A stretch of 63,814 nucleotides of DNA, filler included, from Hausera hauseri (Eukaryota): assembly GCA_046269625.1 (NCBI GenBank). It is 11 parts of 11 records of this genome, joined end to end, with 100 filler letters (N's around TTAATTAATTAA, not from the genome) between each part and the next. Parts side by side here need not be neighbours in the genome. Positions count along the whole stretch, not along the records: positions 29,584 to 36,068 come from JBJURY010094654.1; 10 more parts are not named here. One strand, given 5' to 3'. The notes beneath the pieces are model-generated. The model did not search any database. It was not told the origin of the DNA and worked only from the letters and a program-made list of their open reading frames with translations. Numbering within the stretch: position 1 is the stretch's first letter; each line of letters opens with the position of its first letter. The position numbers and the translations under genes were made by a program. Below are positions 735 through 58,333 of the stretch, piece by piece.

Positions 735-736
735 AA

Positions 737-1439: not shown

Positions 1440-1518
1440 GAGCGGCATCTTCGAATGAGCCCATTGCGTCAGAAGAGGTGGCGCCTACCTGTCCAGGTCG
1501 TCTTAGTCGATCAATTCT

Positions 1519-2610: not shown

Positions 2611-2719
2611 AGGATTTTGCGCAGTAATAGTAAGGTTATGATGGCCCGTTGGCTGGATATTCTTGATCGGAGAATAGATTTAATCCATCTTCTATATTTC
2701 ATATTTATTTTTTCGGGAT

Positions 2720-3867: not shown

Positions 3868-3899
3868 TGTTGGATGATGGAATAACCGAGCTGTAATTG

Positions 3900-5340: not shown

Positions 5341-5369
5341 GTGACGATTGACGAAGTTTTCTCTTCTCG

Positions 5370-7481: not shown

Positions 7482-7581
7482 NNNNNNNNNNNNNNNNNNN
7501 NNNNNNNNNNNNNNNNNNNNNNNNNTTAATTAATTAANNNNNNNNNNNNNNNNNNNNNNNNNNNNNNNNNNNNNNNNNNNN
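7482..7581. other. Artificial contig linker; identical linkers at 11659-11758, 16435-16534, 24539-24638, 29484-29583, 36069-36168, 40652-40751, 50219-50318, 54479-54578, 59482-59581
   Basis: 44 N + TTAATTAATTAA (stops in all six frames) + 44 N, ten times. Confidence 0.99.
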
Positions 7582-7671
7582 TTCAACGGTGTATACAAAG
7601 ATGCAACGAAGAATTTCAGTTTTTCTCCAAAGTTGGAGAAGTGGGAGAATGAAATTTCATCCTGATCGGAA

Positions 7672-10600
7672 ATGATTGATTTCATGAGAAAAAAATTAGA
7701 GACCGATTATGTAGATACTAGCGAAAGTTCAATCGTAAATGACACCAGTACCATTACTACTGCCGGAGATCAAGACAACATTCATTCCGTTATGAACAAA
7801 TGGGTTTGCATGTTATCTAAATCTGAGAAAGCTGATTTGATTTCAAATTTTGCCAAAGAAGATATCCCAAAAATTGTAGATATTCTATCGAGGGAACTTA
7901 TTCGCGAATGTGTATCCGACAATACTCTTCTTGCTTACGGTAACAAAGAAAATGAAACGAATAACAATGCGTTTACAAACGATGCTGAAGATATTTGTAA
8001 GTGCGCCGAAGAAACTGCTGTAGATACTGACGATGAATTTTCAAACCAAGAAATCGTTCCATATCTTGAAATTAATTATAGTGCTTGTCCCATCGGCACA
8101 ATCGTTGACAATAACAATCCAACGACGCTTTCTCCTTGTGTAAATTCGTCTAGTGTAGATATCGTTGAAAATAGCAGTTTTAATCTTTATCGACGATTAT
8201 CTAGCAAACAAATGAATTTTTCTCCTGACGAAAAACAATTGTTGACTTCTGTGGGAAATATGATGATGGATAATGATATTATTTATTCAGACAGTGAGCA
8301 CGATGACAATCATGACTCTCAACACAGCGACACTGAAGTTGATCAACGGAAAGTCATTCATCCTGATTTCGATATTTGCCTAGACGGATCAAATTTTGAA
8401 GTTAATTCTGGCACCGATATTTCATTTAATGAATTAGAAAATATGTCTACTCCTGACATTAAAAATATCGCAGCGAATTTTGCAATGGAATGTGAAGCCA
8501 TGAATAACAATCAAAGTCATATAACTTCGTTGGATACTGTTGATGTAGCACCAGAAGTTTTTCGAGTAGACATTCGAGACGTACTTTCTTCAGTTAACCA
8601 ATATGATTTAAGTCCTATTATTGATGAAGCAAGCATTAGTCATAATGACGATAAACATAGGTTAGATGATATTAGTAAAGTTGGAGAGGTTGACAGATCT
8701 CATGATGAAGATCAACTAAATGAGTTTGAAGCCACGTCTAAAGATGATACTGAATTGAATAAAATGATTCTTGATACTAGTTTAGCTGAGACAAAGGAGC
8801 AAATTACGCATTCTTTAAATCAACCGGAAAATGCACAAGAGATGGAATTTGCTGGTAAAAGTAGTACCGATGATTATGCAATTGATATCGAACCTGGATA
8901 TGATAAGACCATAAATAAAGTGCCACATATTCTGCCATCACTTGGTCGAAACGATACATCGCCCGTAGCTGAAACATTTATCGAAGATGAAGCTCATCAC
9001 TCCGTAATATCAGGGTCTTATGACAAACCTATTAACGACCTACAGAAACTTAATGTGACTATCCAACCTCCATTTATTGAAACTGCTTTTGACGAAAGTC
9101 TCCATGACTTAGTACAAAGTAATACAGCTGAAAATACTCTTTCAACGTCAGATATTCCACTCTTGCAAAACGTGACAGATTCCGAAGACCAACATCAAAT
9201 TTTGATCATAAACGAAAGCATTGGCGAAAATAATTCAGATACTAAATTCCCAGTTCTTTTTAATGAGAAGGAAAACGATAAACGGCGAGTTGACATTGAT
9301 GGTGACGCTGGTATACTAGGCGTATGTGAAAGAAATGACGTTGTTGAGCCGGAAATCACAGAAACTATTATAAGAAAAGATCGTCATCATCAGCTGAAAA
9401 TTTCTGAGCCTCTTTCCAAATTCGATTTTTTCCAGGACTATGAGAAATTGGAACTTTATGTTCCCAATATAACTGATATGTCCTACGTTAATGACGAAAT
9501 ACATAAACACAACGATACGTTGAATAGTGAGACAACATCATTACCGACTGATAGTTCTGCCGTTTGCTTCAAAAGTGAAAAATTAAGAATACAGAAGTTG
9601 GATCAAGTGGACTTATTCGGTATGATTAATACAACCAGTCACATTTCTCGTTTTGACAAAGTAACACTTGATTTTGAATCAATTCTTCCAGACCTTACGG
9701 ATGTTGATGAAGATATAGTGATGAAAATCGGTAAAGTACATGAAAAACCTTGTCCTACTGACGACGAGTATATTGATGATAGCCAAGGTGGTCAAATCAT
9801 TAATGATCTCGATGAGTATACAGAATATATCTCTGGAAGTCAACACCAAGTTCCAGATGATAGTGAATATAAAAACCGAAAACATTTCTCTGAGCTAAGT
9901 GAATATGTTTATGATAACATTGATATAAGTCAAAATAAACATTTTCATCTTTCTAAAGAACACATGAATTACGATGAAATTGTTACGGGAATTGTTCCAG
10001 AACTTAAAGATGTTTCTAAAATGCCATCCATATCCGAAGTTACGGAAAATGAAAATGAATATTTTAAACCATCACTCACTACCACACATTTATTCGAAAG
10101 CAAAATAATTAATGTGTCGGACTCCATTCCATCTGATTTAGAATTGACAACAATTGTTGAAGAAACGCAAGAAGACAAAAGTCCCTGGTATACGACTTTT
10201 CCTCAAGGGGATAGTCCATTTATAGAAGCACAAATAAGTACCAACACAAATGAAGTACTAAGTCAGAAACCACTTGGTATAAACGCACAAATTGGTCCAG
10301 ATAATTATAATGTTCCTGACGTTTATTTGAATCAAGATCTGGCTGAAGATACAATGTTGGCCCAAGACGATGATTATGATACATTAGGAGATTTGAGACA
10401 TCAACTCAGTATTTCAGTCACCAAATCCAATACTTTCCTTAGTCATTTCTCTAAAAGTAATGCAATCGATAATGTTGATCTTGCTCTCAAAGAAAACGAC
10501 GAAACATTGGAACAAATTTCATCTAATGAAGACACATTAGAAATCTTTACAAAAAATGACCAAAATACTATATCTGACGACTTTATGGGTGATTCCAACA

Positions 10601-11658
10601 TAATCCCTGTAGATGATGATCTTTATGACGCAAAGAACTTAAAATTTGGATCTGATAACAATGCCGTTTCTGACGATATTGATGAAACCTATTATCGCTT
10701 TGTGCCGAGATGCATATACACTTAACCAATTGATTATGCAGTGAATCAACAAATCGATACGGATGAAATTTTGAAAACAAAAAGGTTCAGTATAACATCC
10801 CTGAATCGTACTCTTTGTTTCTTGCAAAGTCGATGGGAAAACGTGTGCGAAGAAATTCGAGACGTGGAGGAAATTTCTCTACGACCATTTTTTGTGAATT
10901 TGTTGATCGAAATTCCCAAGCCTCAAATGACCGAATTGATAGATTCGTTTAAGAATTCTCTTGATGTTCTAAATTCCAGAACGAAAATTAAATCTCTGTC
11001 GGAAAGTGAAAATTACTGTTATCAGTTGCATGCCCATCAATTAAAAATCAGCACAATTGAACCGCTGATCAATCTGTACTGCCAGCGGTATGATGATGAC
11101 ATCATTGGACACAGACTGACGAAAGTCGTAAATGAAAACGTTATTCAATCGAAGAATTTATTAATCAAAATGAATGAATTGGAAGAACTATATCAGAAGG
11201 TTACAAGATGGAAATCGGCGAATTTTAATAAATACCGTGAACATTTAATGTGCATTGACTCAAAAATAAATACCAAACTTGCTATTTCGATATTAAAGAA
11301 ATTAGATGGAGAATTGAATCATCAATACGAACAAATAAATCTGGCTAAAAATTGCTTACAATCCATAAATCTAACAAATTATTCGACGTTAATTGACCAC
11401 CTGTACTTATTAAACTCATTATAGTCCATTGAAACCAAATTAGAATCCTTGCCAATGAAAATGGACAGAAGTTTGCACGAGTTGTCGTCGGTATTTAACA
11501 AATGGACCGAACTTGAGAAACTCGAACTTGCCATTATCGGAATTGAAATTGAAATTGATAACTACATCAGTGAATCGAAAGATGACAAGAACCGAAAGAA
11601 GACATCCTTGGGAATGTTAACGGCTCTCTTCAGAGCCACAATTATTGATTTTAATGAG
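7672..11658 (+). CDS. Large acidic low-complexity protein with C-terminal helical/coiled-coil (possibly spectrin-repeat) region; interrupted by in-frame stops; 3' truncated
   Basis: 1017-aa D/E/S/N-rich ORF, continued in the same frame by 10741-11424 and 11449-11658. LQSRWENVC and VFNKWTEL resemble dystrophin/nesprin-type spectrin repeats (weak). Confidence 0.55.
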
Positions 11659-11922
11659 NNNNNNNNNNNNNNNNNNNNNNNNNNNNNNNNNNNNNNNNNN
11701 NNTTAATTAATTAANNNNNNNNNNNNNNNNNNNNNNNNNNNNNNNNNNNNNNNNNNNNGTTGAAGTTAATTAAGATTAATGTAGACTTGTTGATCATCAT
11801 CGGTCAAGTGACTCAATGCTAAGATTGATGACGATTTGATGGTAGAAGGTGTATCACACGTTTAGAAAAATTGATTACGATAATTTTGTGTTAGAGTTAA
11901 GAGATTGCATTAGTAAAGAAAA

Positions 11923-13066
11923 TATGGCAGAAGGGGGCGAAAGAATAGTGGCAATCCCACAGCAGCAGTTAGATGTCATGATGGCAGAATACAGTGCAAT
12001 GAGAACTGCTTATGAGGAGACTAAGAAGTTATTGGAAAAAATGCAGTTAGGGAGTCAGACCCCGATTAAAGAAGGGAAACCATATAAGTCAGGTTTGGGT
12101 AAGGACGACCCGGTCAGAAAAGCACTGGACAAAATAGAGACTATGGTGACAAAGGTAGATATGAACAATAGACATCAAAATATTAGGACATTCGTACAGC
12201 CATTCAGCGGAAGGGAAACTAAAACATTTAAGACGTGGCTGTCGCAGATCGAAAAATACGCATATTTAGTTAAAGCCACTGAGGAAGAAAGAAAGGAATT
12301 GGCATATATGACTTCTGATGGATTGGCGAACGACTTCATTAGACGAAGATTTACGTCGCACCCAGAGGAAACGTGGGAAGAATTTAAGAAAACGCTAGCC
12401 AACAGATATGCCGAGGTCAGTGATGCACACTACGCGGTAGCAGCTCTGAGAAAGATTAAGCAAGAAAAGGAAGAAGCGGTCCAATTGTATGGAGACCGAA
12501 TGCTGAATATGGCTGAAGAGGCGTACACTGGACAAAACATAATGTCCGAGGAGATAGGAAAATTATTAATCCCCATTTTCATAGATGGTTTGAAGAATAC
12601 AAGAATCAAAATCAAGTTGATGAAAGATGAACCGAAGACTATCCAAACAGCGATACAAACGGCAGTAGAAGAAGAGAACTTCAACAAAAGAATCAACATG
12701 AGGTTAGGCAGGGAAAAACATGAGGACAGAAACGAAGAACAGATGGATATAGACCAATATAGACCAAAGTGGCATAGAAGACAGTATGAACATGAACGTC
12801 ACAGAGAAAAGCGGTTCGACAACCGGAAGTTAATCCAAGAAGTTGAAAGGGAAAGGAAATGCTTTAGTTGTGGAAAATCGGGACATTTCGCTAGAGAATG
12901 TCGAAGTAGAACAGCGAAACCGATCAATGACAGACCAAGAATGGGAAATAGTGGAAATTGCTACAGATGTGGTGAAGCAGGGCATTTTACCAGGGTATGC
13001 AAAGCAAATAGTACAGAAGAAGTTAGAGTTCCTAGGCAGCAGGGAAACGGGAGTCCTGCTGTGTAG
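11923..13066 (+). CDS. gag: Ty3/gypsy Gag with two CCHC zinc knuckles (family C)
   Basis: PFSG..FKTWL, TWEEFKKTL, KQEKEEAV, FIDGL, EQMDID, CFSCGKSGHFAREC and CYRCGEAGHFTRVC. Confidence 0.93.
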
Positions 13067-13101
13067 AACGGCCCATGCAGAGCAGGAGAATAGTAAGGGC
13101 C
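13042..13101 (+). promoter_or_regulatory. -1 programmed ribosomal frameshift signal (slippery heptamer + H-type pseudoknot)
   Basis: G GGA AAC in gag frame; 5-nt spacer; stem TCCTGCT(G)TGTA / TGCA(G)AGCAGGA; loop GGCCC (13070-74) complementary to GGGCC (13097-101). The -1 frame is open into ORF 13075-13749. Confidence 0.8.
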
Positions 13102-16100
13102 CACCAGAATAGAAAAAGAGAAAATTCATATCAACGGAACACCGAATACGATAGTCAGGAAAAGAACTCAAGAAGAATCAGGCCGAATATTAGACCAATA
13201 CGGAAGAAAGAAGAGAGATATAGGACTAGAATCATGAAGCGAAGGGAACCGAATGACAGGGACTACAGAGTGGCGAGCTCGAGAAGAAATAATAAGAGAG
13301 AAAGTATGAAAAGAAATTACTACGGAAAATACTATGAAAGAAACAGTAGAAGTTACAACAATACAAGAAGAACTTTGAATTCAAAAAATAACAGGTTGGA
13401 TCGAACCCCAGTAAAAAGGAACAGTTATCGAGAATATGCTAAAACGAAAGGCAAAGAAACTGATAAAGTCAGAGAAACCGGAAATCGTGAAAACCGGCTA
13501 CGTACGCAGCAACAGTGTGAGAAAGCTGAGCAGGAAACAAGAAGTGAAGCAGCGCAAAAATACCGAGATGGAATAGAAAATAAGAGGCATAGTGAACTGG
13601 AGCCTATGGAGGTGGACGAAACTAGACGCAAGGTACAGGGAACAAGAAAAAACCCCCAAAGCAAATCCCACCCTGTCCCAAACACAAGAAGGTCGTTAAC
13701 ACCCACACCCCGATTCCGAAAAAACAACGTCCCTGGCCCGAACAATTAAAAGTGGAAGGTACCAGAAATGAATGCAACAAAAGGGTGAAACAGAAGCAGA
13801 GATATGAAATAAATGTTATAGAGGATCCAAGTTCATATATTTCGGAAAAGTTAGAGTCAGATGTTTAGTAGACACTGGCGCACAAGTTAGCATACTCAGC
13901 GAACGAGTGTACCGGATGTTAAAGATCAAAGGAAAATTAATAAAGCAAGACATTGATCTAAGATCCGTATCCGGAAGCGCGTTAAAAGTATTGGGAAAAA
14001 CCGTACTGGAGTTCCAGATCGGAGACAAAATAATGAAGCACAGTTTTCTAATAGTGAGAAACATGTGTCGAAGCGTGATTATTGGAAGAGACTTCCTCTG
14101 GAAACACAACGTGCAAATTTATTTCGACCTAAAGAATATCAGAGTGGAAGACCAATATGTGGATCTAGAGGACGACATACACATCGCGTCCATCGTTCGA
14201 GTCAGAAAGAAGATAACTATGAAGCCGAACTCTGTGAATATTGTGGTAGCGTCATTAAAAAGAAACAGCTATTGGCACGAAGGGGTAAGCGTAACAGTGA
14301 CCTCACTAAATGAGAAAGAAATAATCGACGAGCCGGGACTGCAAACAGTGTGTGGAATCGTCAAATTAAACAAAAAAAGAGAGATACCAGTAATGATAGT
14401 CAACCATACTGGACAGACAATAACGCTACAAAAGGGGTGTGTCATGGCCAAGGTAGATAAAAGCGAACCGTCGATATGTGCAGCTGTGAACGTGGCCGAA
14501 AGAAATAAGAAGGAGATGATCCAAGAAAAACTAAATAAGTATTGGGAAGAAAAGGCGCGAAGAAGAGCACATCGAGACCGAGTGTTGACAGAGATAAGAG
14601 AAGGGCTATGGATGCGAAAACGAGGACAGATGATTGCAGAAATTAGTCAAGATGACGAAAGAACTAAGAAGTTGTTGGAGACGCTAAAAGTAGATGAAAA
14701 ACATAAATCCTGTATAGAGAACTTTGTAAGAAAACACGCGGACGTTTTCGCCATATCAGATATGGAGTTAGGGCGAACACAGACGGTTACTATGAAAATC
14801 GAGACGGGAGACCATGCTCCTATAAGCCTAAAGCCGTACAGAACACCACTAGGAAATAGAGAGGTGGTAGAGAAAGCGGTGGAGGAGATGCTACGCGCGG
14901 GCATTATTGAAAGGACAAGATCCGAATGGTCGTTCCCAGTAGTAATTGTATCAAAAAAAGATGGCAGCCACAGATTTTGTGTGGATTATAGGGCACTGAA
15001 TGCCATCACCAGCAACGTCAGTTACCCGATGCCGTTAATTGACGACATTTTGGGATTGCTGGACGGAACTACCTACTTCACGACATTGGATGCCAGGTCA
15101 GGATTTTGGTGCATACCTATGTCCACAGAGGCAAAAGCAAAAAGTGCATTCTGTATGCACACAGGCCTTTACGCCTGGAATGTCATTCCCTTTGGCCTCA
15201 AAGGATCACCAGCAACCTATATGTCTCTGATGAATATAGTGTTAGAAGGGATGCAGGCATATGCCCTGGCGTATATTGATGATATATTGATTTTTACTAA
15301 GGGTGACATAAAAGACCACCTAGAACATGTGGAGAAAGTGTTCAACCGATTGAAGGAGCATAAAGTGAAGTTGAAGCTAAGCAAATGCGAGTTTTTGAAG
15401 GAAGAGACAAAGTACTTAGGTTTTGTAATTACCAGGCAAGGAGTAAAACCAGACAACGAAAAAGTGGTAGCCATCAGGTCCATGGCAGCACCAAAAACCA
15501 CCAAGGAAGTACGCGGATTTCTTGGAACGTGCGGATATTACTGACGGTTCATTCCAAATTTTTCCGTAATAGCCGAGCCGTTAGTAGCACTAACGAGGAA
15601 GTTTGCCCGATTCCGCTGGGACGAGAACTGCCAAAGAGCTTTTGAGTATTTGAAAGAAAGTTTGACGGTGGTACCCTTGCTAATGTACCCCAACACTAAT
15701 AAAGAGTATATACTGTATACAGATGCGTCAGAATTCGCCGTAGGAGCAGTACTGGCCCAGAGGGATGGTGAAGAGATGGTGCAAGGGAAGAAGGTGGATA
15801 TGGAAAAACCAATTTATTTCTTGTCCCACAGACTAACCAAATCTCAAAGGAAATGGTCTGTGACAGAAAAAGAAGCATACGCAATCCACTACGCCTTGCA
15901 GAAATTAAACTTTTACCTGCACAACAGTAAATTTACAGTTAAAACAGATCATATGCCACTGAAGGCAATGATGAAAGCAGATGTGCAGAACAAAAGAATT
16001 CAACCGTGGATTCTGAACCTGCAGGGGTATGACATCAACATAGAATATATCCCGGGGCCACAGAATACTATCGCCGATCTGCTGTCGAGACTACCAGACA

Positions 16101-16417
16101 AAAAGAACTATGAAGAACAACTAGAAGAGACTACAGAAGAAGGCACCCCAGAGATTGATGAGCATACGCTGCAAATTTCAGCGATTGAGTCAACAGAAGC
16201 TAAAGAAGATACAACAGGAGAGTCAGCAGTGGAACAAAAGGGGGAAGATGAAAAGGAACTAAATATGAAGGTAGAACAACTAAAAGATGAAGAGCTGCAC
16301 AACATTATTGAAGATTTAAAATCAGGGGTAGAAGAAAAGTTAAAGAAATGGAAAAAGTTTATGCTAGAAGATGAAAAATTGTATAGAGTTGGAAATGAAG
16401 AGAAAAGAAACATCTAA
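13042..16417 (+). mobile_element. pol: Ty3/gypsy pol (Arg-rich N-terminal extension, protease, RT, RNase H), family C; truncated before integrase
   Basis: CLVDTGAQVS; FCVDYRALN, TTLDARSGFW, PFGLK, YIDDILI; LYTDASEFAVGAVL, EKEAYAI, TDH, ADLLSR. Nonsense codon at 15542-15544 (YY*RF) and frameshifts near 13740-13845. Confidence 0.95.
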
Positions 16418-27600: not shown

Positions 27601-27980
27601 AGGTAAGTTGAAGGTAAATGACGGAAGTGAAGCTGAATTTAGAGCTACGTTGATAGTGGGAACGTCGGCGAGGTCTTGTTGGTATTTAGGCGAGGTTTTC
27701 GGATCAGACCCGCCGAGTAGACGAAGATGGATAGTTAGAAGAAGCGTGGACAATCTGAATGTATGAGGTGCAAGTATTTCTGATGATAGGAAAAAGATGC
27801 CGTTATAAGAAAGTCGGAAATTGGTAAATTTGGTATGGTGTGTTAACACATCAGACAAGTTTTCGACCGTGGCTGTATAATTTGCATGACATTTGTGTAC
27901 CTGTTGATTGTGAAAAAAGAAAGCGAGTTGGATGAAACTGTCGAAAACGCCAGGAGAATGTAGTGGCAGAGTAGAGGCAT
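24639..27980 (-). mobile_element. Ty3/gypsy element (family B, CsRn1-like), decayed: Ubl-gag, protease, RT, RNase H
   Basis: LYTANGQELRICG (protease region); SPWASPLHVV, RPCGD, STIDLEKAYHQIPVAPEDI, YIDDILV; gag LRIYFLKFLPRDIRVLL..LAQLA; C-x2-H-x9-C-x3-C motif near 26820-26870. Confidence 0.9.
27709..27935 (-). CDS. Ubiquitin-like domain fused N-terminally to Gag (copy 1)
   Basis: LAFFFHNQQVHKCHANYTATVENLSDVL..FRLSYNGIFF..STLLLTIHLRLLGG versus ubiquitin TIENV..RLIFAG..STLHLVLRLRGG; in frame with gag EYFIDK*YSSRTWL. Confidence 0.75.
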
Positions 27981-30048
27981 CGCCAGGTTCCAGGTAAATT
28001 GGTGCCCGGTTTATCCAAGCGAGAAACTAACCATCAAATTCGAAACCGGACAATCCCCGCCCGTTAGTGCCGGGGTTTTAGAATTCGAATATTTGCTTAT
28101 TTCTCGTGTTACTTTTAATGATATTTTATGGCGTTAAATGCGATATAAAGGATGTTTCTTTGGCCGCCTAATTTCTCGTCACTGGATTTCGAGTCAAGAA
28201 TATTAGATTATGGTAATCTCAAGAAAACTTTTAAAATATTGGTTACCTTCTCATCAGTTTGAAAGATATTATGTCTCAATGTTTGAGATTTCAAAACCAA
28301 AATGCCGATGAAAATGCAATTATATTTGTTTTTATTGGGTCGTGTATTTTCTAAAGCTTGGTTATTTAACACAACATTGTCCATGCTTCTCAAAGTGCTG
28401 ACATATAAAACTCCAGAATCGATACATCTATCCTGTGGTGAATCCAACCACTGAGAATTAAGAATGGGTTCAGATTTTAACGAAACAAAAAACCGCCGTT
28501 GTTACATTTGTTTAAAGTTGTGCAAAGATGCCTTTGGTGATTTTTATATCTCTGGAGTGGCCTGACCAGTGATTATCATGTGGGAGTCTATGTGAATTAA
28601 ACTTTCCTGTAAACAGTTCAATATGTTGCTTCTCTAGTAAGTTCAGTAGCTTTTGTATTACTGTGTTGCTTCGTCAGGTTGTCTCGCTCCCTTTCTCTAA
28701 ATCTAGTTTTGCGTATGTTGTATCAATTATTGCCAGCTAACTCCAGCCCCGTAGAACTTGTGACGGCGTTTTTCTAAAGATTAAAATTGTTTTGTTGTTT
28801 TCAAAACTTCACTGAGAATTCGATATCTCGTTGTTCCGACAATTTGCTGCGTTTTTAGTAAAATAAATAATATGACATTTACATAAATCGTTACTTCGCA
28901 TATATTCTGTTTTGTTCTTGGTAAAGAGCTGAGGAGTTGAAGTCCAGGATTCGAAGCTCCAATGTTTTGACGCAAGGCTCAAAATATTTATAAATCTAAA
29001 CTGTTTTAAAAACAATGGAATATTTTCTGCTTCACAAACAAACATTTGATTTACCTATTTAATATATATATATATTCTTAGTTTCTAAATTATATTCTAT
29101 TTTCAGAAAATATTTTAATTTCAAGTTTTCGGCCAGGTTGAAAAAAAAATGTTTTGTAACATTCGTATTAATGTTAACGAAATATGTTATGTTATTTGCT
29201 AATGACACTAGAATCACACCATTCCCATGTAAGCGCCACTCTCTGTTTTTAGCCAACCACAGAAGGCATCTCATGCTCACCATATTAGCAACTCATTGAT
29301 TGTAGGACCTTATTTCTTGTCTTGCAAGTTTACTTTCTTCCATCACCTCTTCTCTCACAGATTGATTTCTTCATATAAGCATTATTCTACAACTTTGCAT
29401 CCTATGCTCATCCAACACATTTTTCAGGGCTGTCAGTGGCGTATGTGTGAGTTGATGACCTGCGCTAGGCGTCACGCTAAATTNNNNNNNNNNNNNNNNN
29501 NNNNNNNNNNNNNNNNNNNNNNNNNNNTTAATTAATTAANNNNNNNNNNNNNNNNNNNNNNNNNNNNNNNNNNNNNNNNNNNNCGATACTACATTTCCGA
29601 CCGACAAGCGACGTTGAGTGGCAAACAAGTGCCGATGGCGCGAAAATATATTTTGTTTTAATATTGTACATATGATTTACAGTTTTGAATTTTCGTTCTA
29701 ATAAATCGATATATTCTGCCATTTTAGTTACGATTTTAGACATTTTGTTTTCCAAATAGTTTATCACTGATCATTTGGATTTTTGGTGCAGTCAATTTAT
29801 TTCGAAATCCTCCGTTTTAGACATTTTTATTTGAAATTTCGAATTTATATCATATGCGCGAGCTATTTAGTGCACGTATTATATTTATCATTTACAATTG
29901 GTGTCAGAGTTCTTTTTATAAAACTACTGTTTTATAACTGCTTGAAAGCCGAATCGCAACTTGCGGAATTTGCATCAGAGTATCACGAAACCGTGGAGAC
30001 CGACCTGGGTTAAGGCAAAAGTCGTTTGTAAATTATGATGAAAACAAA

Positions 30049-32600
30049 ATGTATGGCATTATATCAATTGAAGATTCCGACAGCGATAGTATCATTATTA
30101 TTACTGATGATGAAAACGAAGGTAGTGCCACGACATTTTCTGACCTGAATGAGACAACATCTAGCCCTGTTAAATCCGATGTTATATCCACACAGATTAA
30201 TAAGTTTCCTAGCATTATTATTGACAAATTGTCCGATCTATGTGATGATATAAGCAACGACAATCCGGATGATAACTCAAATGACATTGTTACGACAGGT
30301 AATCATGAGGAAATAAACGATGTGGCACTCACCAGAGACTGAAACCGCTGACAGTGTAAATGAAGCCAATCCAACGTCGCACGAAAGTCAGAACAATGAA
30401 AATACAGATAATTCTGCTTCTAGTTTACCGGAAGATATCAATTCCAACAAATCGAATGTTGATAGTGCACTAACGAGAGATATCGATTCGACATCTTCCG
30501 TGTCGGCCATAGGCAAAAATTGGCTCCATTTCCCCATGAAACGACGGAAACCGCCGAAAAACGCCATTCTCGACGATTTGGACAGTACGTTTTACGTTGA
30601 AAAGGTTCTGGATGTTCGGGAAATTCGTGAAAACTCATGGGAAAGGGAGGAAAGTATCAATTTCCCATCAATGATTGATGATTTTATTGCCGAACCATAT
30701 GTTGTTTAACATAAGGACCGTGTCCAAATGACTCATTCGGCTATTAATCCACAAAATGACAAGTTACCGAATTCCAAAATCATTAACGCCGTCTTCTAAG
30801 GAAAGTTTTCTCGAATTGGATAATGCCTACTTAAACAACCTAAGAACCAAATCTGCAGCATACTGTGTTCTTCCAAATGAACAATTAAGTCATATACCAG
30901 AAGTCTATCGAAGTATGCCCGAAACCGATTTGATTCAAAGCGATGCTCAATGCGATATCGACGTGTCGAGCAGGGATGTTATGACATCATGAGTCATCAC
31001 AACCCAATGTACACAAATAATGAGTATGAATCTATGGCTGAAAGTCAGGTAAATCTGCTTGACCCAAGCGACGAAATTAGACGGTCACGACTTATCAACG
31101 CTAAGCAAAATTTTATAATTCTGGATAATCCAATCCTCCGGTCACATGATGGGTTGAGACTCAGTCCATTGGGTTTACACAAAATACCCGGCTTTTTAGA
31201 TATGGATATGTTACATGATTCGTCGCTCGACTTTCCTGATTATCGACGTCCAGACTGCTCGAATTCTATGGGAAATGGTGACGACAGTGATCATTTATCG
31301 AAGAAAAGCAGGAACTTGTCGAACTCGAGAGATAGTAGTTCAATTGCTGCACGAAGATTCGGTGGACAAACTTCGTCTGATGAAAGTGGTCAGAAAAGAG
31401 ATGGCTTAAAATGTAAATATGAGGACAGTGAAATGAATAACATTTCCAATGAGATTCATTATTACGACCAAAGTAACAAAGATAATGCACAAAGTAAAAG
31501 TCAGAGAATTGGTGAAGATACATATGAGTTCATTCATCCCTCAGTCACTCCAAAGTAGCGCTCCTGGTCATCCAATGCTATCAAATTCTTATGACAACGC
31601 ATCATCGTGTGTTAGCGTAGTAACGAATTTCGGTTGGACCAGTTATGACGATGATGATCTGTACAGTGATTATCCGGACTATGCGAAAAAGACCAATTCC
31701 TCCAATCATGCAAAGAAAAATTGGTCTTCAAAGCGGTCGGAGACAAATGACATAATTAGTAGCCATAATCATATCGATGAGGACGATTCGGATTTGGATT
31801 GTATTCGGATTCATAGTGATCTGTCGGATTACAGTGATAACCCTCCGGTATCTGACTTAGACAACGAAACTGATACTGAATATCGATCGACTGACATGGG
31901 TCATGCAGAGTTTATGAATGACAATCAATATAAACAGATTTATAAATTTTCCCCGGGTAATATGCTGAATTCTGAATATTACGGCAAACGAGCCTTGGAC
32001 AAAAATGCTTTTGAGGCTCGTGGGAATGACATATTTAGATGATATGGACATGACTGGCAGCATATTCGCTTCTCATCCGTAGGCCAATAATGGATGTCAA
32101 AAAAACGAAGACTGTGACATTCATTCTCTACCGTCGAGCAGAAAAGATGACTACAGTTCGACTTGCAGAAAACCTCCTCAGAAGGATTGTGATAGGATTC
32201 TTAGTTCAAGACTTCCCAGCGTTGCTTTGGTGCAAATACCTGATTTTAGTGATTTTAAAATACCGAGAGATGTTATGAAACAGAATATTATCGCAAAGAA
32301 CGGAAAATCACGGGAGATTTTTAGTCTATCATTCAGATTTGCCTGAGTATGCAATGTCAGTGTCAAGAATTCCCTTAATAATAACGCCAGCAACATTCGC
32401 TTTCATAAAAATGTAGATAGTGAAAGAAAGCAAGTCACAAATGGGAACGACAGTGATGCAATGAGTGGGTATGCTGGAGATGTTGCTTGGTCCGTGTACG
32501 ATAGTGATGAAGATGACCAACCTCATAAAAATAGATTTATTCAACTTTATTTGGATTATAAGATGGGCAACGGGCTACTTTCCTAACTGTTGTCAACAGA
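30049..32600 (+). pseudogene. Fragmented host gene: acidic/Ser-rich protein with partially deleted chromodomain
   Basis: Chain of overlapping low-complexity ORFs in shifting frames. FYVEKVLDVRE..ENSWEREESINFPSMIDDF matches both ends of a chromodomain but lacks the YLVKWKGY core. Confidence 0.55.
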
Positions 32601-33515
32601 TGATGGGGATACAGCTAATTCTGACAATTGATTCAATAAATTGACAAAAAAATTCCCCACAAAAAAGTCAAACAAAAACCGAACATTTACGAATCTCTTT
32701 GGAAAACTAGTGAATCCAAGACAATTTTGGTTCAGTTTCCTTTCTGCTTGTTTTGGAATGCTCAGCTTATTGTTGGGTTTAAGTTATAAAATATGCCGTG
32801 AGGAACTGAAAGGCTGGTGTGAAGCAATGAATTTCAACGAACTGAATGTCAGATGGCCGGTTATCTTACCCCCTGTTCTTGTGATCGGTTATACACTTTG
32901 GCTTCGACACAGTGTAAATAATTGCTCAACTAAATTTAACGTGCTTTTGTCAAGTATTTTATACCCCTATCCACAGTCTTTATTTTTTCATCTCTCGTTA
33001 CAATCGGCGTTATTTTCTATTTCATTATTCGTTCTCGTTGTCCTCTTTGCAAATCCTTTAATGATGGTCGAACGTTTTTTATTGCAACCGAACGTTTCTA
33101 TTCTAACAATCTATCAACTGTTGAAGGAGTACCAGTCTTCGAATAGATCAATCGTTGTTCAAAGACATCCTGATCCCCTAGTTCAAGCTGAATCAGTCTC
33201 GCCTTCAGCAACTTCATACGTTTGCTCAGTTTTTTTTCACACGGCGCAGAGCCCTCTAACTATCTCGTGTTCTGCAACCGCCATGGACCAAGGATTAAGA
33301 AAAAGGTCAGTGAATTTGTTACATTGCTGTTTAACCATACAAACCAAGGCCATGATTGACGGTCCAAAAATTATGCATGACCCTGTTGTTAAAATAGAAC
33401 TCTATCGTCATAATCCTACTTTATGCCCAAGGGACGTTAGAAAACTAGACGCAGTCAAACGTCAACTATGCCGGAGACGCAGAATGCCCTTTCTACCGTT
33501 AACCACCCTGCAATT

Positions 33516-36068
33516 TAGTGCTCACCGTGCCGGGACGGAAATCCCGACCGCCAACCTTGCACCGGTCGGTCGGACGGCGCCTTCGACGTCGGCCCAACGT
33601 CACGCCCCCAGGCGCACCACTGCTCCCACTTTCCATTTTCTTTTTTAACAATATACATATCTACACCCTTAATACAACACATCCACACATTTCCACCTTG
33701 CAGACCTGCATTTCGTCCTTACTTAATTTTCCAGACTTTTACCTCATCCATAACGGCGCTATCATACATCTCAACGGAACTTAACCTTCTTTTTCAAATC
33801 ACACTTGCTTCAACATACATCTCCGTATCCGTGGTGGTATGAACTCTCTGCCACTTACTGACACCATGGATACAACTACAAAAAAGGTAATACCCATTCT
33901 GTACTACTCCAGTCCAAACCATCCACCTACTTCTCACAAAAATCCTATCAATACTTCTCAACATGCACTGAATACTTTATAGATAATAAAAAGCCCAGAA
34001 AAACTTGGCTCCACTTCCATAAATTCTGGTTACAGTCCAACGATATCACAGACTCGTTATCCAAAGCCCATAACTTACTTTATCTTCTCCCAAACTCTAT
34101 AAAGGTCTCAATCCATAACTTACTGGACATCTTTCAACACTCTGACCCTTATACCAAATTGTTCGATGCTGTATTGAAACAGATAGAACCATCAATTGAC
34201 TCCATAATGCAACGCTTCTTTAACGAAAACGCAATGGGAGCACAAAAACCCAGTGACTTCCTATGCATCTCGTTGGCTCACTTACGTACTCTCGGAGTCA
34301 CTAAGCAGCACAACCCAGATCTTCTGCACCACTATTTTCTTAATGCGCTACCTATCCAATTCCGGGCCTTACTTACCGTGGTGGGAGACTCCGCGCCGCT
34401 TGAAAAATTGGCCTAATTGGCCGATAGGACACACGATGTCCTACATGTAAATTCTGCACTAGTCGTTTCATCAGTAGTTGCCGCTAACGATAATACATGT
34501 ATAGAACAAAAACTTAATCAGCTACGTGCTGAAAACATTGCAATACATGCAACAATCAACAACATCAATAATAAATTGAACAAATTGTCTCTGTCCCGCC
34601 GAGGGGGTTTTGCCGCAGACCGTACCCGTTCTGCGTCACGAAACCGCTCACCATCGCCTGCGCGTTCGTCGATTTGCTACTACCACAGCAGATTCAACAT
34701 TAATGCTCAGAAGTGCTGCCTAGGCTGCAAGTTCTATAATAAGAATTTTTCCTCTGACACCGTTATCTGTATCTACCATGCAAGGTTCAAAAATCAGGCG
34801 CGTAGATGTATTCCAGGCTGCACTTTTAAATCTAATACGAACGACGGACGTAATGCCTTCCCTTCTAATAGTCGTCCTAGTTCACCCTTCCAAAAAACTA
34901 AGTTTGGCGCAAGCAGTCACGGCAAACTCTAGCGATAGCACTAATTCACTTTCTGAACGTCAACACGTCTCTTTTGCAGTCTTTACTCTAAAGGCTGCAA
35001 TCACTGTTCCTACAACACAATCTGTTGACTTCCTCATTGATACAGGTTCAGCGATTTCTCTATTACCACAAACCTTTCCTACATAAAATTTTCCATTCAA
35101 GATCAAATCTTTATACACTGCTTCAGGCCAACCGCTACGCATTTCTGGCACAGCTAAATTATCTTTCACTTTACCAAATTTCTCCTTACCTTTCCACTGG
35201 ACGTTCACAGTCGCTAACGTCCAGTCGGCAATTCTAGGATCTGACTTTCTCTCACATTGTAATCTGCTGGTTGACTGCAGTCAGCGATGTTTGAGGAACG
35301 GCACCACTGGTAGCATTTCTGGATATGTAAATAGCGTTTCGACTACCGGACAGTCGACCGGAATGCGGAAGTCAATCTTAAAATAGTCAACGAATGATTC
35401 GATTTTTTATAACAATAATTCAATTCGTAAATTTTTAAATAATAATACTGACATTCGATCGAAGTTCATTGTCGATACTTGTGGTACTGCCACCAACGCT
35501 AACTCATTCGACAAAAATACCTTAGCCAATACCATTTTCAATTTAACCATCTTACACCAAATACCACTTGACTGCACATCACCAAACAACTCACACATTG
35601 CATCTACTACTCAAGCCGTTTCATTACTTCCACCAAATCTCTCACAGTTACCTACAACTTTACAGCAATTTGTCAACACATCATGTCCACGCGTACTTAA
35701 AAAAGACCTTACTTTTACTCCCGCAAACATCACTTTACATTACATAGTCACACAGCACCAACGTCCGATACGCCAAAAAGTACGGCATCTGTCACTTCGT
35801 CGTAGACAGGCCGTAAAAGCCGAATTTCCTGAGCTCGAACGTTCCAGCATAGTACGCCGTTCCAAATTTCCTTGGTCATCACCGTTACATGTATAAAAAA
35901 GGACAGTACTTTGAGACAATGTGGTGACTACCGACAGCTAAACAACGTGACTATCATGGACGCGTATCCTTTACCACTTATCAAGGATATCCTGCATCGT
36001 CTTAACTCAACCACCATCTATTCAACCATTGATTTAGCTAAAGCATACCATCAAATACCGGTAGCACC
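33516..36068 (+). mobile_element. Ty3/gypsy element (family B), decayed: leader, Ubl-gag with two CHCC motifs, protease, RT start
   Basis: FLIDTGSAISLLP; LRQCGDYRQLN, STIDLAKAYHQIPV; gag KPSDFL, FLNALPIQFRALL; CYYHSRFNINAQKCCLGC and CIYHARFKNQARRCIPGC. Confidence 0.92.
33630..33838 (+). pseudogene. Ubiquitin-like domain upstream of/fused to Gag (copy 2)
   Basis: LSIFFFNNIHIYTLNTTHPHISTLQTCISSLLNFPDFYLIHNGAII..*..FNIHLRIRGG in one frame with one stop at 33782-84; a frameshift separates it from the gag core. Confidence 0.7.
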
Positions 36069-36168: not shown

Positions 36169-38620
36169 TCGTCCAAACAATCTACCTGATTTTACAGAAA
36201 CATTTATGCCATCTAAACCCCTATTTGCCAGTACTAAAATGGTCGGCAAAGATGTCATTATACAGAATACCGATATCAATTCTTCACTGGACGAGACACT
36301 CCAACTTTACAACATCCTTTTTAGCAAATTCTATAATCTGTTGGATGACTTTATCCTTTCTCTGTTCTGTCGAAATTTTAATTTCTTTATCCATTGCCAA
36401 GGCGCGTTGACGATCTATTATCTCTTCGAGTTGGTTTTTCTTCATTACAGTGATTGCACTGGATTTGGTCTTTAATCTCGATAATGCATCAGCGTCTACA
36501 TGTTTATTCCCTGACTTATACTGGAATTTGATATTATATCTGTAGATTTCTTCGATCTACCTGTTAAGTCTGCATGTCGGGTTATTTGCCCTGCCTTTTA
36601 AGGTCGCAACGGCCTTGTGATCAGTGACAATTATAATTTTCTGTCCGTATACGTTGAAGTGTCGAAGTGCTTCTGTTAAGGCTAGAGTTTCTAATTCGGT
36701 AACAGAGTAATTTTTCTCGGCCTTTTTCAAGAAACGTCCTCCATAAGCAATCGGATGCTCTAAATCTTCATCTTCTCTTTTCTGCGCTAATTCATATACA
36801 ATGCCTTCTTTACTAGCGTCTGTCTTGATTATAAAGGGTCAGCTAAAATCTGGGTATCGTAAAACAGGTTCACTTGTTAATATTTTCTTCATCTCATCGA
36901 AAGCTTTCTGCTCGACATCCGTCCATTTTCCTTTAATTCCTCTTTTAAGCAAACGATATAGAGGTGCGTTTATCTTTGAATTATCCGGCACAGGTTGCGT
37001 AATACACGCATAATCCTAGCCAGTGCCTTAGTTCTTTTTGCTTTTGCGGTTTCATGCAGTCTGATATTTTATTTAATAATGATTTATCTGGCCTCGATCC
37101 TCCTTCTCCAACTATATAGCCAAGGTAGGATATTGCATTTTGAGCCCATGTGCATTTTTTGCATTTAATTTCAAGCCGACTTGTTCTAGCCTCATCAATG
37201 TGTGCTCAATATCCTTTAAGTGTTCCTCTTCGGTTATTGACGCTATCATCACGTCGTCTAAGTACGCAAAAGCGTGGTCCAATCCCACTAACATCTTATT
37301 CATCATCCCTGTAAATATGGCTGGCCCGGTAGTAATACCGAACGGTATGACATTAAATTCATAAACAGCATCGTGCGTTTTAAATGCTGCTTTATAACGG
37401 TCTTCGTCCTCGATCTCAACTTGCCAATATCCGGATTGTAAGTCCAAAGTGGTAAACCATTTTGCTCCTGAGAGTCTGTCTAGGGCCTCCTTGACGGACG
37501 GTAATGCGAAGGAATCTTTCATCATAAGGTTATTTAAGGCTCTGTAGTCAATACAAAATCGATGTTTTGTAGTACCTTTCTTCTTAACCATGGGGATTGG
37601 TGAATACCAAGATCTATAGCTGGGCCTAATTATATCGGCCTTAAGCATTCGTTCAACTTCCTTCGTTATTTCTGGCCTTAACAAATGTGGTGGAGGGTAC
37701 CATTATGGCAACTTCTGATCCTCGATATCTATTTCTTCGTTCAAAACAGGCTTTTTCTTGAACGGAATAGTCAGTTTTAATGTTTTCGATCTACTAATAT
37801 CTTCTTCGTCCTTAGCAATAATCGATTTATGTCGACATAACAATTTATAGAATCGACAATAAGACTCAGGTGAAAACTTACTTTCAACATAAGGTAGAAA
37901 TTCGGCATACTTGTAAGGCTTCTCTTCAATAGTTATAGATGACACTCTATACGTATCTCCTAGAGTCGTATAAGCATGAAGCTTGACGAGAGTCTGCGCA
38001 TTATTAGCTATTCTTATCGGTACATGACCGGAGTGTACTCTTGCTAATGTATTGCTGAGTAATATATTCGGATCTAACTTAGCCCTTGGTTTAAAATATA
38101 CTGGTTGATCGTCATCTTGATGTATTTGAGCGTAAATTATCATTTTTGTTCTCGGTGGAATATCTTCGTCTACGGGTATCCAGACCTCTTCAAATTTTCT
38201 ATACTTAGCGTTTTTCACGCCCTTATTTGGCCTGATTTCTATCAGCTTCCCTGCTTGTAAGTCAATTGCTATATTTGGCAATCTTTTCAGTGGATCGCAT
38301 CCCAGAACTACGTCGTCAGCTAATTGCTCCATGACTGCAATTTCATGATGGAAAAGTTGTCCAACTATTTGGATTCGGGGTTCCATTTAAACATCGGTTT
38401 TGACATTTGGCCAAAAGCTCCTGTACTTCCTGGATCTTTCGTAGATTGTGGGTATAATTATTCTCTCAGTGTTTGAGGTATTGAATCATTTTTAATGTAA
38501 GACATCTCGGATCCTGTATCGATTAAGGAGTAAACTTCCCAATCCCCAATAATGATTTTGACAAAGAGCCTTCCTTCTATTATTGTTCCGAAACGGGTTG
38601 ATGTATACTGTGAGCGTTTC
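36169..38620 (-). mobile_element. pol: Ty3/gypsy pol (protease, RT, RNase H), family A sister copy, decayed
   Basis: LFVKIIIGDWEVYSLIDTGSEMSYI; FCIDYRALN, TTLDLQSGYWQ, YLDDVMI; HPIAYGGRFLKKAEKNYSVTELETLA; ANNPTCRLNR..DADALSRLKTK, nearly identical in protein to 6720-7100. Confidence 0.95.
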
Positions 38621-38936
38621 AGCGCCGATATTTTATGTCCATTGATTAGGATTTCGGGGGAGATACTATATTCTCCCACAATTGTCTTAATTCTTCCTTG
38701 GGATATAATTCGTTATTTTCTATGTGCAATTCCTCCACTTCATGTGTACTAATTAATGCTTCTAGATTGTTAGTGTGTAATTCCATATTCTGGAAGGTTT
38801 TTAACCTTTGATTATCCCAAACTGTTTACCTAGTTTCTATATTCCGAGGTTTTCTCGGAGAATATAACATCTTTGGACCATCTGTAGATTGTCAATAACA
38901 CATTTTTTGTAGGATGCCGTAACGTTTCGTTCCTTT

Positions 38937-40649
38937 TTAGGGATCTTCTATATTAATTGTTCTTCTATAGATTTCCGTCTGGCATGAACTAATTGACCGT
39001 TTGTCACAGTCTTCATAGAATGGAGCGGTAGGAGGTAACATAGGTAATGGCACTGTGATGACAGAGTATGTCTTGTGTCGGTTTATTCCTGGAAGTCCTT
39101 CTCCTCCCTTAGGCTGGTTATCATCTGCCTTATTTCTTCGTGTATTATGTTTTGTAAATTTCTGCTTTCGCAAGAATATCGCTCTTCTTCTTCGTTTACG
39201 ATTGTAATATACGACATGACGTTTTACGTCTGATTTCCATCTGTTTTCTTCGTATGCCTTTAAGAATTTTCCAAAGGGTGTTATGATCGCAGTCAGTATT
39301 TAGCATGAAAATCGGGTCAACGTAAATATTTCATACCCATTAATTACGGCTTGGATGATTGCTTTGATTATTTGTATCAGAAAATATGTCGCTAAAAATC
39401 CGGATGCAGCTTGTCCGAAAATTAAGAATCTTCCCCAAATTTTGTAGAGTATTTCTGTGGTCACTCGCTGATAATGATTTACGCCAAGTAGGGATTCCCA
39501 TTTAGCCTGGTATCGTATATCATTCACTACCGATGCCATGGCTCGATTTAGCTCGTGTGTTCGTTGTCGTGGAAAGGCAAGGAATTGTCTGAAAGCCTCA
39601 ATTTCCTTCGGTCTGTATATGCCTTTCGATGAGGTGTCTTGAAATTTATCGTCTGTAATTCCCTTCGCGAGATTTGTTCCTGTCAATTTATTTGGAGCGG
39701 CAATAATATCTCTATTTGGCAAGCTGACCCAGTCCATTTCACTACGTCTAAACATGGGTTCTCCTAGGCTTGCCTTACAATTTTTGAGGATAGTTGATTG
39801 GGTGGCGTTATCCAGTAACACTCTTGTCAGTGGTGTAGCTAACCTTGCAATATTTTGGTAAATAACAAGAAGTTCCTGAATGCAGCGTTTTTCTTCCACG
39901 TTGATGGGTACATCGCTCTTTTCACATTTATAGGTTAACAATACTTCGCCTGTTACCCGACCGAAAATTCCTTCTCTCATGGGAATTACCGGAGAAGATA
40001 ATTCTGGGTTTGCATATATAAGAGCCATTTTGGTCCTCATGATCTTCGTGTCCAACTTACAGTCATTCATTATCATTTTGTGATATAATTCCGTTATTCC
40101 GACTTGCCCTTTATAGTAGAAGAAATCATCTCTATTTTTCAGATAATCTTTAATGCGGATATCCTGTGTTTCTAACTTATAAGTTTTTGCACTTATCTCC
40201 GTTTCTGTGACGGAAAACGCCTCATAGTTCGTGGCAAACATCACTACGTCACAGCGAGAAGTCATCTCCTTTTTTATAAATTCCAATCCATGCTGATCCG
40301 AAATTAATATGGTGGGCGTAGAGTGTTCTGATACGTCTTCGCGTGACCTTGAGTTGGTATCTGATTTATCCACATACCGTTTTCCGGTAGTTTCGTTAAA
40401 CCGCAATTCATTAATTTTAATAAAATTACAACTTCTTCCAGAAGGAGGTTCCCATATTATGACAGAACTTCTAAAAGCACAGGTCCAGTCTTGTAAATGA
40501 CATTTTTGATTCTCAGTGTATAACTTGGTGACGCTATGGAACATCACTTTCTGTGATCGCATTTCCGATTCGTAGAAATCCACGACTACCACGTTCGATT
40601 ACAATCCTTTTCTGGTGTCATATTCTGCCCCATAACAGTGTCTGCTGTG
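38937..40649 (-). pseudogene. env: Chuvirus-like / herpes gB-type envelope glycoprotein, C-terminal two thirds with TM and cytoplasmic tail
   Basis: CKLDTKIMRTKMAL..GIFGRVTGEVLLTYKC..RCIQELLV..TPLTRVL..C..PMF..W..GIYRPKEIE..F..WGRFLIFGQAASGFLATYFLIQII..VINGY matches the chuviral G signature from memory. In frame through a stop at 39300-39302 to a PTAP-containing tail. Confidence 0.85.
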
Positions 40650-56090: not shown

Positions 56091-56849
56091 TGGTGCCCAC
56101 ATTGGCCCATTTAAGAAAAATAACTATGGAATTAGCAAATAAAATCATTTGTAAAGTTATCATAAATCTATATAAATTAAAAATGAATAAGTGCCGTAAT
56201 TGCAGATTTTACGATAACCTCCAATCTAGTGTTGTTTAAATAAAAAGAAAATTTTTGTGATTAAAAATGAGAAAAAAAATAGATTTTCAGTTTTCTTTTT
56301 TTATTCTGCCATTTTTATTTATCAAAGAAATCAAGTCACCCTTTTATTCAATGCCTGTACAGACTCATTTTTTGTTGGGAGCAATGTTCTGTTTAGGACA
56401 AACTGTCGATGCTGATCATTTTTGCAAATCTTTAAAATCCCCCTTGACCATTTTTTGCAGAAACTCTGGGAGATTCATAACCTTTTTCAGGGGTAGGTTA
56501 GAACTCCCTACAAATGCGGATAATTTCTTGATTCTATTCAAGTCTGATTTGAATCAGAGCGAATTGGAAATGAAGTTTAAATTCTACAGAGGTGTTCGGG
56601 AAGGATGTGCTGAAATAATTCTGCAGCAATAGTTTCAGCATTTCGAGAACTGAGCTGTCAGTAACTTTGAGGTTGTTAAACAGTGTTCTACACTGAGTCC
56701 ATTCATTCTAAAATGTTTTCACACCATCTATATCTTTGGAGTAGAATTGTACGACTCCATTCAAAGAAACATCTACTTGTATATCTGTGTATCGCAAGAA
56801 CGAGAACAGCTCGTCGACCTTTGAGTTCGCTTTCATTCTCCCGTCCAGA

Positions 56850-58333
56850 TCAAGAAGAAGCGAATCAATAATCACCAGAAAAGTGAATATTCCGAATTCG
56901 TCTTCTCAGTTGGACATGGTGACGCCTTGAGAACTTTGAGCATCTGCAATTAATCGGTAGTATTTTGTCCGTTTTTCAAAAAATCTAAAGATTCAGACAG
57001 TTTCTTCCCTACCTCAACAAACTCTTTGAACTTGTTTATCTCGCAGAATTCCAACAAACTCACTCAGTGATTTAAGAAGACAAACTGACGATCCCAGATC
57101 TGCTTTTTCAGACTGGAGAAGCTTACTGGCCATGTTTGTTCTATTCAAAACACAGCTCCAAAATTCTGTGAGAAAACCTGTTTCCAGTTTCACTAATGCT
57201 TTGATGATTGAATCAGCCTCAACTCGAGTAGCTTTCGTCTTCAACGGGTCTTCAGTGATTTGTTGCATAACTTCAAGGTACATTTGGTAGTTGGAATTCA
57301 AACTATTAAGCGCATCGGCACGTATTGACCACAGAGTTCCACTCAGCCGTTTAGCAACAGATCCATCACCACCAGTAGTTTTTAACTTCCCCCTGAGTGT
57401 ATTCCACCGCGAAGTAGAAGTCAAGAGAAACAGGTAATAATTTCTGCACAACTCCAAAGAAGGTAATTTCTTGGACACAGGGGATGCAAATTGCTCTGGA
57501 GTTGTTATTGGGCACTTTAGCTTGAATTATGTTGTAAATTCAGGTCATATTGGAGACGTTGTCGTACGTCTGTCCGACAAAGTCACACAAAGGTATTCCA
57601 AGATCTTGAGGTGTTCTGCTGATTTGGTAAAAAGTTTCACCAGTATGAGAAGCAAAACGAACAATTAGTAGGAATCTCTCAATTGGAACACCATTTGTTG
57701 TAACATAACGAATAGTAAAAGTTTAATGATGTGTGATATCCGGAGTGGAGTCTACAATGAAAGAGAAGTACTTTGCAACCTTCAGTTCGCCAAGGATTGT
57801 ATTGTCATCAGTTCAATAAATTCATCACAGGTTGTTGAAGAAAGATAGGATGTTTAACCCTTTCAATTTGACCTTCTAAGAATGTGTCATACTCGTCAAA
57901 CTACTCCAAGCATTTGGTTACTAAGGCTACCAAATTTCGTATCGAATCCACAAAATGCTAAACCTTGACCAGTCAGAAATTTCAAAGTAGACACAATAAG
58001 TTTCAGGATTTCTCTCCAATAATGTTTCTCTTTTTCATGTTCTTTAACTAGAACACGATCCAATGTCTCTTTGTTGGAGACTCGAATGGAATACTGAGTC
58101 AGTGCTCGCTGATAATCAGCAGATTCTTCATGTTTTGAGTCTGCTTTACCTTTAGGATAGGTTTCGACTACAGCGGAATTTCCAGCAGCTTCAGTGGAAG
58201 TTCCGGCAGGTGTAGCAGACAATTGAGCAGAAAGAAATGCACTGATCTTTGGAAGTTTCTGGATGTGTATCTCCTCTTTGGCTTTAAGTTTTCTTTTCTG
58301 GGCACCAGTTACAAAGCGTTTTACAAAAGTCAT
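56850..58333 (-). mobile_element. hAT-superfamily transposase relic (ZMYM1-like / DUF4371)
   Basis: GAQKRK, YWREIL..LKFLTGQGLAFCG, YLSSTTCDEFI, KYFSFIVDSTPDITH, STSRW, KRLSGTLWSIRADAL; many stops and deletions. Confidence 0.88.

Follow-up and report, generated by a model that had tools for sequence, protein, structure and literature searches.

The ubiquitin-like domain (Ubl) encoded at positions 33,632 to 33,838 of the window, the 63,814-nucleotide stretch of Hausera hauseri DNA analysed here, belongs to a dead member of a Ty3/Gypsy retrotransposon family in which pieces of host genes, here called cargo, lie upstream of Gag. The family has the layout LTR, tRNA-Leu primer site, cargo, linker, Ubl ending in Gly-Gly (GG), Gag, pol, purine tract and LTR, and its cargo shows a bias in both sense and frame. 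To judge from sequence, cargo, Ubl and Gag are probably made as one polyprotein, which a host deubiquitinase would cut after the GG to free Gag with a fixed Met or Ser. On balance we lean towards a translated cargo bay, in which in-frame pieces of host mRNA would ride in the Gag precursor until a deubiquitinase frees Gag.

Layout of the element

The features of this copy, together with two further Ubls of the window, are as follows.

29584-29896 (+): 3' part of the 5' LTR, ending TTTACA; the contig begins inside the LTR, which is matched by loci L232 (91%), L242 and L243
29899-29910 (+): primer binding site, complementary to the 3' end of tRNA-Leu; the first 10 bases match and the rest has diverged
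29911-33503 (+): cargo, a decayed 3.6-kb mosaic whose pieces are found on other contigs in different orders
29938-30339, 30317-30709, 30881-31558, 31437-32042 and 32632-33648 (all +): open reading frames (ORFs) of the cargo
33504-33631 (+): GC-rich conserved linker (GTEIPTANLAPVGRTAP...), containing ACG-CCC and ending in a T-rich tract where the frame changes
33632-33838 (+): Ubl ending HLRIRGG, of a family with profile, Pfam and fold-model matches; stop at 33782
33839-34932 (+): Gag from the Met after GG, with spacer, capsid, coiled coil and two fingers; broken
34675-34728 and 34768-34821 (+): the two CX2HX9CX3C fingers of Gag
34892-34898 (+): AAAAAAC run in the gag-pol overlap, a candidate -1 frameshift site
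34900-36068 (+): pol, with aspartic protease (DTG at 35039) and the start of reverse transcriptase (RT); broken, ending at the contig edge
44992-45210 (+): subfamily B Ubl (HFCIRGG-S), before Gag, RT, RNase H and integrase
27709-27933 (-): subfamily C Ubl (HLRLLGG-S), before Gag and RT

The LTR end at 29896 was placed by L232 and L242, which match that far and then run into unrelated DNA, and by L243, which matches the LTR and continues into a perfect primer site. The primer-site motif TGGTGTCAGAAG lies 0.4-5.2 kb upstream of the Ubl in 19 copies; its complement was examined in 12 loci, 2 of which proved to be tRNA-Leu(CAG) genes ending in it. Among nine copies with an upstream LTR head, only four have the primer site, which counts against the polyprotein. 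In L065 (about 204-245) the primer site extends to about 40 bases of tRNA-Leu complement; that tRNA end has 23 exact matches in the genome, and only 2 of the 12 scanned are tRNA genes. A hairpin-like motif at the head of the linker was also considered as LTR end plus primer site, and was rejected because all 14 of its matches continue into the Ubl region.

A purine tract lies downstream of integrase and leads into an LTR head of the TGTGGTG type; heads of this type also occur 0.4-4.9 kb upstream of Ubls. One paired repeat was found, in L123 (970 bp at 89%), and no single contig holds a complete element. The long loci carry gag and then protease, RT, RNase H and integrase, the order of Ty3/Gypsy LTR retrotransposons. 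In L153, L164, L032, L043 and L044, units are arranged head to tail, so that integrase, purine tract and LTR head lead into cargo and the next Ubl-Gag; the two units of L153 differ in their cargo. The copy at 33632 is itself broken by a frame shift near 33630, the stop at 33782, a stop in Gag at 34414 and breaks in pol. Its AAAAAAC run recurs in 33 of 49 copies scored in subfamily A, 9 of 19 in B and 0 of 3 in C.

The window holds other features. A Gypsy element distinct from this one, with Ty3 capsid, CCHC knuckles, protease, RT and RNase H, lies at 11846-16417 (+), and two open frames at 7666-11424 (+), of 1019 and 232 codons, lack a convincing match in Pfam. The stretch 37112-40598 (-) has an RT fragment (37112-37702) and, close to it, an ORF (39300-40598) whose match is a Monjiviricetes fusion glycoprotein (E 2.5e-40); it is a predicted element with a captured envelope-like gene. 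Broken frames at 56500-57900 (-), presumably of a hAT-type transposase from their resemblance, contain an LLLRGG unrelated to the Ubl.

A ubiquitin-like domain at the Gag boundary

The plus strand at 33632-33838 reads SIFFFNNIHIY...DFYLIHNG...HLRIRGG, followed by ATG at 33839. The first-pass annotation had described here a diverged Ubl with an FFFxN..Y start, an FYLxHNG strand and HLRIRGG followed directly by Met, and all of these motifs are present at 33635-33839 (IFFFNNIHIY from 33635, DFYLIHNG near 33740-33760, HLRIRGG ending at 33838). The three Ubls of the window define subfamilies A (33632 copy), B (44992 copy) and C (27933 copy). They lie on three different contigs and share 49-62% nucleotide identity against 51-54% for shuffled sequences, in agreement with the low similarity that had been claimed; protein identity to the subfamily B copy (44983) is 37% and 31% for the other two. 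Met straight after GG proved to be the rule in subfamily A alone, the residue being mostly Ser in B and C.

With each window copy as query, we found at least 150 relatives for each of subfamilies A, B and C in the 869-Mb assembly of 909,086 contigs (from 2706, 2722 and 811 candidates, respectively). Of the 171 copies scored, 138 retain the GG: 74 of 83 in A, 37 of 51 in B and 27 of 37 in C. Searched against longer proteins, the Ubl alignment gave 0 of 7995 candidates. The closest single-domain look-alike outside the element family is P0147, a 144-aa protein whose Ubl carries YLTHNG and FRIRGG.

A profile built from 24 Ubl sequences returned ubiquitin and ISG15 chains as all of the best 60 matches listed, with E values of 5e-4 to 5e-3 against single ubiquitin chains, and weakly matched SDE2 (E 0.005) and eS30 (E 0.004). 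Of the 24 members, 3 matched the Pfam ubiquitin family, the best of them (E 0.0015) without reaching the curated cut-off, and identity to ubiquitin is only about 20%. A structure model led by a subfamily C copy (36 sequences) reached a pLDDT of 86.5, with a TM of about 0.8 to ubiquitin, ISG15 and SUMO and an rmsd of about 2 Å; it had 314 PDB matches at E≤0.001, those listed being ubiquitin, ISG15, SUMO and their kin. With a subfamily A copy in the lead, the model was poor (pLDDT 63.6, best Z 5.7), and a Foldseek search with it returned no match at E≤0.001. Searching the genome with the yeast SDE2 Ubl family gave no match, and the control was likewise silent. The profile and the models support the assignment of the domain before Gag as a predicted ubiquitin-like beta-grasp domain, with a good model for C and a weak one for A.

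In all three subfamilies, and in relatives from ENA, the terminal RxRGG or RLLGG falls exactly at the Gag boundary, and a tail of this kind is one that deubiquitinases recognize. This placement argues against a reading in which the polyprotein is made and the Ubl is either cut by the element's own aspartic protease or left uncut, as a binding module or to target the cargo half to the proteasome. That the element encodes a protease (the DTG at 35039), that the identity to ubiquitin is so low and that many Ubl domains are uncleaved all fit this alternative, which we nevertheless regard as quite improbable.

Selection on the Ubl

We measured omega (dN/dS) on stop-free, non-duplicate copies (63 of 111, 37 of 55 and 24 of 39 loci), without ancestral reconstruction, and obtained pairwise values of 0.45-0.51 for the Ubl. 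Variants common to at least three copies gave 0.27-0.46 and singletons 0.9-2.0 (Fisher p 1e-9, 3e-4 and 4e-4). By the same method, omega was 0.06-0.10 for the capsid. The comparison of Ubl with linker that the first-pass annotation had proposed set the shared-variant values against 0.68 (p 0.3) for the subfamily A linker. Its argument for purifying selection on the Ubl holds, at what these values suggest is moderate strength.

Cargo derived from host genes

The 249 kb upstream of Ubls contain 148 ORFs of at least 150 codons on the gag strand and 15 on the opposite strand, an imbalance that speaks for the polyprotein. Between primer site and Ubl, the 19 copies have 56 ORFs of at least 120 codons on the gag strand against 3 opposite. 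Pfam matched 62 of the 148 gag-strand ORFs: 53 were host-type (42 loci), 2 were duplicates and 7 were element domains. Opposite-strand ORFs (n=49) yielded 3 host-type matches and 4 from neighbouring elements. The host-type families include tubulin, RPB1, RPB2, MCM, HSP70, acetyl-CoA carboxylase and aminopeptidase, as well as helicases, ankyrin, RasGEF, CYFIP, INTS7, PAZ and others.

In the window copy, two cargo pieces (30553-30695 and 32568-32653) come from a two-chromodomain gene, whose Chromo match has an E of 1e-31 in L244 and 0.037 in the window piece. The five cargo ORFs of the window, taken as wholes, had no Pfam match, and an atlas search with the last of them gave no usable match. Queries with RPB2, CYFIP and INTS7 cargo returned further pieces and no clear intron-bearing parent gene. 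Among L249, L250, L254, L257, L258 and L260 are several divergent versions of RPB2 and a contig of more than 86 kb that carries an RNA-polymerase-like frame of 1265 codons; the assembly may mix organisms.

An assembly chimera is an unlikely source of the cargo: its pieces turn up on further contigs at 83-95%, and both the primer site and one cargo junction are bridged by contigs of run X1, which may be the source sample. In this run, cargo has a summed contig depth of about 5-40, and linker, Ubl, gag and pol have one of 270-13,700. We also considered that the cargo might lie wholly inside the LTR. This was rejected in part: the cargo follows the primer site in the window copy and 18 others, yet host-like coding pieces also occur within the LTR itself, behind the purine tract, in L115 (a zinc finger) and L123.

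Some of the cargo would suit a role of its own. Pieces of PAZ, DEAH helicase, chromodomain, FYRN/PHD, INTS7, NOT1 and RNB genes could be kept by selection as host-gene decoys, against small-RNA silencing or as interfering protein fragments, with the released cargo-Ubl acting on the host. We think this very unlikely. Tubulin, metabolic enzymes and transporters are in the cargo too, the pieces are truncated and the 131 copies fall into 62 upstream groups with different cargo. Cargo omega is near 1 (0.99, 0.90-1.07, 51 pairs), at a low divergence where post-insertion decay dominates and where the Ubl also gives 0.93.

Reading frame from cargo to Gag

The first-pass annotation had the Ubl at the N-terminus, with all three window copies apparently starting M-P (ACG-CCC in the 33632 copy). 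This reading was not supported by comparison across copies. Among 29 A copies scored, the triplet reads ACG in 20 and ATG in 6, and among 35 B copies GTG in 21 and ATG in 5; ATG (as ATG-CCT) is typical of C alone (13 of 19). Upstream of the triplet, the frame runs on through the conserved linker into kilobases of cargo. We rejected ACG-CCC as a start codon, the triplet not being conserved as ATG and the frame extending upstream. Since the frame continues and the triplet varies, the Ubl is not simply N-terminal; in well-preserved copies it is internal, between captured-gene cargo and Gag.

Of the 62 groups examined, 34 gave a clear vote on which frame is open directly upstream of the linker, and 28 of these voted for that of the Ubl (p 6e-9), in a segment that may partly cover the element's own linker in B and C. 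Farther upstream the open frame agrees with that of the Ubl in 23 of 43 groups (p 0.005). Groups that share a cargo point the same way in five of seven cases, the window copy's group included: their Ubl frame has no majority stop over 137-360 codons (one shared-cargo group being left out of the count), against 8-34 in the other two frames. The remaining two of the seven lose the Ubl frame after 136 and 210 codons, which counts against the polyprotein.

Unbroken frames from cargo through Ubl to Gag span 1475 codons in L031, 1357 in L111 and 897 in L032, each joining pieces or domains of different genes. The start varies by copy, an ATG sitting on the primer site in some, L111 among them, and a Met lying upstream inside the LTR in others. 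Four ENA proteins (P0074, P0152, P0155 and P0001), known at the protein level only, run unbroken from cargo or leader through Ubl-GG to Gag; P0074 and P0152 join DIS3-like and CNOT1 pieces to Ubl-GG and the same Gag, and P0155 has an arginine methyltransferase piece in that place. A metagenome scan with P0155 found two methyltransferase loci, both without Gag. In-frame joining could arise in part from microhomology between coding sequences.

These frames bear on the alternative that the Ubl is an N-terminal cap, translated from a local start just upstream, with the cargo as untranslated baggage. Such a start could be an ATG close by, a non-AUG codon, internal entry at the GC-rich linker, or a start reached after splicing. 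It would fit the ATG-CCT of subfamily C and the in-frame Met present no more than 45 codons ahead of the Ubl in roughly half of the copies in B and C (24 of 47 and 23 of 43; 14 of 83 in A), a count that goes against the polyprotein. Stops in the cargo tell the same way, their deficit not being significant (22 seen against 29.8 expected, p 0.09), although they are as dense as in the capsid (22 in 5651 codons of cargo, 53 in 14,109 of capsid). So do the frequent frame breaks at the T-tract in A, where the linker-to-Ubl junction is in frame in 32 of 71 copies, with 20 and 19 in the other two frames, whereas the frame within the Ubl itself is intact in 58 of 69. Against a local start, those breaks fall about equally both ways and differ among copies with one common cargo, A and B have no conserved start codon, the frame bias holds in 28 of 34 groups and frames of 900-1475 codons are unbroken. 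We consider a local start unlikely, and favour translation through the cargo.

Comparison with known systems

Host genes with an N-terminal Ubl offer a precedent for the cut that we propose. In FUBI-eS30 and the ubiquitin-ribosomal fusions, a deubiquitinase removes the Ubl and exposes a defined N-terminus. SDE2 and these fusions are host genes with the Ubl at the N-terminus, whereas the element's Ubl is internal in well-preserved copies. According to the accessible text on SDE2, USP5 cleaves this protein after its Ubl (PMC13572447); the same exposure of a defined N-terminus by a deubiquitinase is what we would expect for Gag.

In pestiviruses, ubiquitin is a processing signal for NS3 in the polyprotein (PMC8310069). 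In the available portion of that source, cytopathic pestiviruses, like the element, have a ubiquitin unit in a polyprotein, taken up with other cellular sequence, and host hydrolases are shown to cut the ubiquitin and leave an authentic downstream N-terminus, as would happen here (PMC8310069). As described there, the pestivirus cases are sporadic RNA-virus mutants with near-authentic ubiquitin, whereas the element has a diverged Ubl fixed family-wide, behind kilobases of exchangeable cargo (PMC8310069).

Capture itself has been described as LTR-mediated retroposition in animals, where mRNA pieces, sometimes of several genes, sit in LTR elements, mostly in sense (Tan et al. 2016, PMC5131818). 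In the part of that paper available to us, the retrocopies break up the element and keep the frame of their parent gene, and no Ubl is mentioned (PMC5131818). Here, by comparison, gag and pol stay behind the cargo, which is in frame with Gag via the Ubl. The giant planarian Gypsy elements Burro and GYPSM1 also have host-derived domains in the polyprotein, including a Ubi2/SUMO-like motif; in the text consulted their Gag (CCHC) stands at the N-terminus, with the extra domains behind it in a stable set (PMC6431247). In the present family, the cargo precedes Gag and varies by copy, and the GG that closes the Ubl lies at the boundary with Gag.

By its Gag, which resembles DUF7041 proteins (a weak capsid match, E 0.015), by its CX2HX9CX3C finger and by its gag/pol overlap, the element is like the CsRn1 clade as presented in the accessible text of PMC2582038. 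That clade uses a tRNA-Trp primer (PMC2582038), whereas the element has a tRNA-Leu site, two fingers, and cargo and Ubl before Gag; no Trp-type primer site was matched upstream of any copy. With the finger present and the tRNA-Trp site absent, we filed the element as CsRn1-like and not as a CsRn1 member. Gene capture by LTR elements was thus already known, and the new part is the Ubl link between cargo and Gag: we found no paper describing a Ubl before Gag or a Ubl-GG joint between cargo and Gag, in a search that lay outside most subscription journals and Repbase.

Discussion

Capture would proceed by template switching of the reverse transcriptase onto co-packaged mRNAs, after Tan et al. Translation would start at or before the primer site, so that a ribosome coming from near the 5' end of the RNA would cross the cargo before Gag. 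As Gag lies beyond the cargo for such a ribosome, an element would stay autonomous only if its captures were in frame. The Ubl-GG would let a host deubiquitinase restore the N-terminus of Gag whatever precedes it, and since Gag would thereby be independent of the upstream sequence, any in-frame capture would be tolerated. Cargo would then be retained for being open, not for its protein.

LTR elements usually lose their own genes on capture. An autonomous family appears here to have solved that problem with a protease-release tag, and capture can therefore be massive and in frame. The element would unite LTR retroposition with the use of ubiquitin as a processing signal in polyproteins, both of them known before, and it predicts that a transposon depends on a host deubiquitinase. 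If this is true, the Ubl would license continual, genome-wide exon shuffling, by which the host transcriptome would yield chimeric proteins when the element is active, which offers a mechanism for the gene-scrap mosaics in the Hausera hauseri genome.
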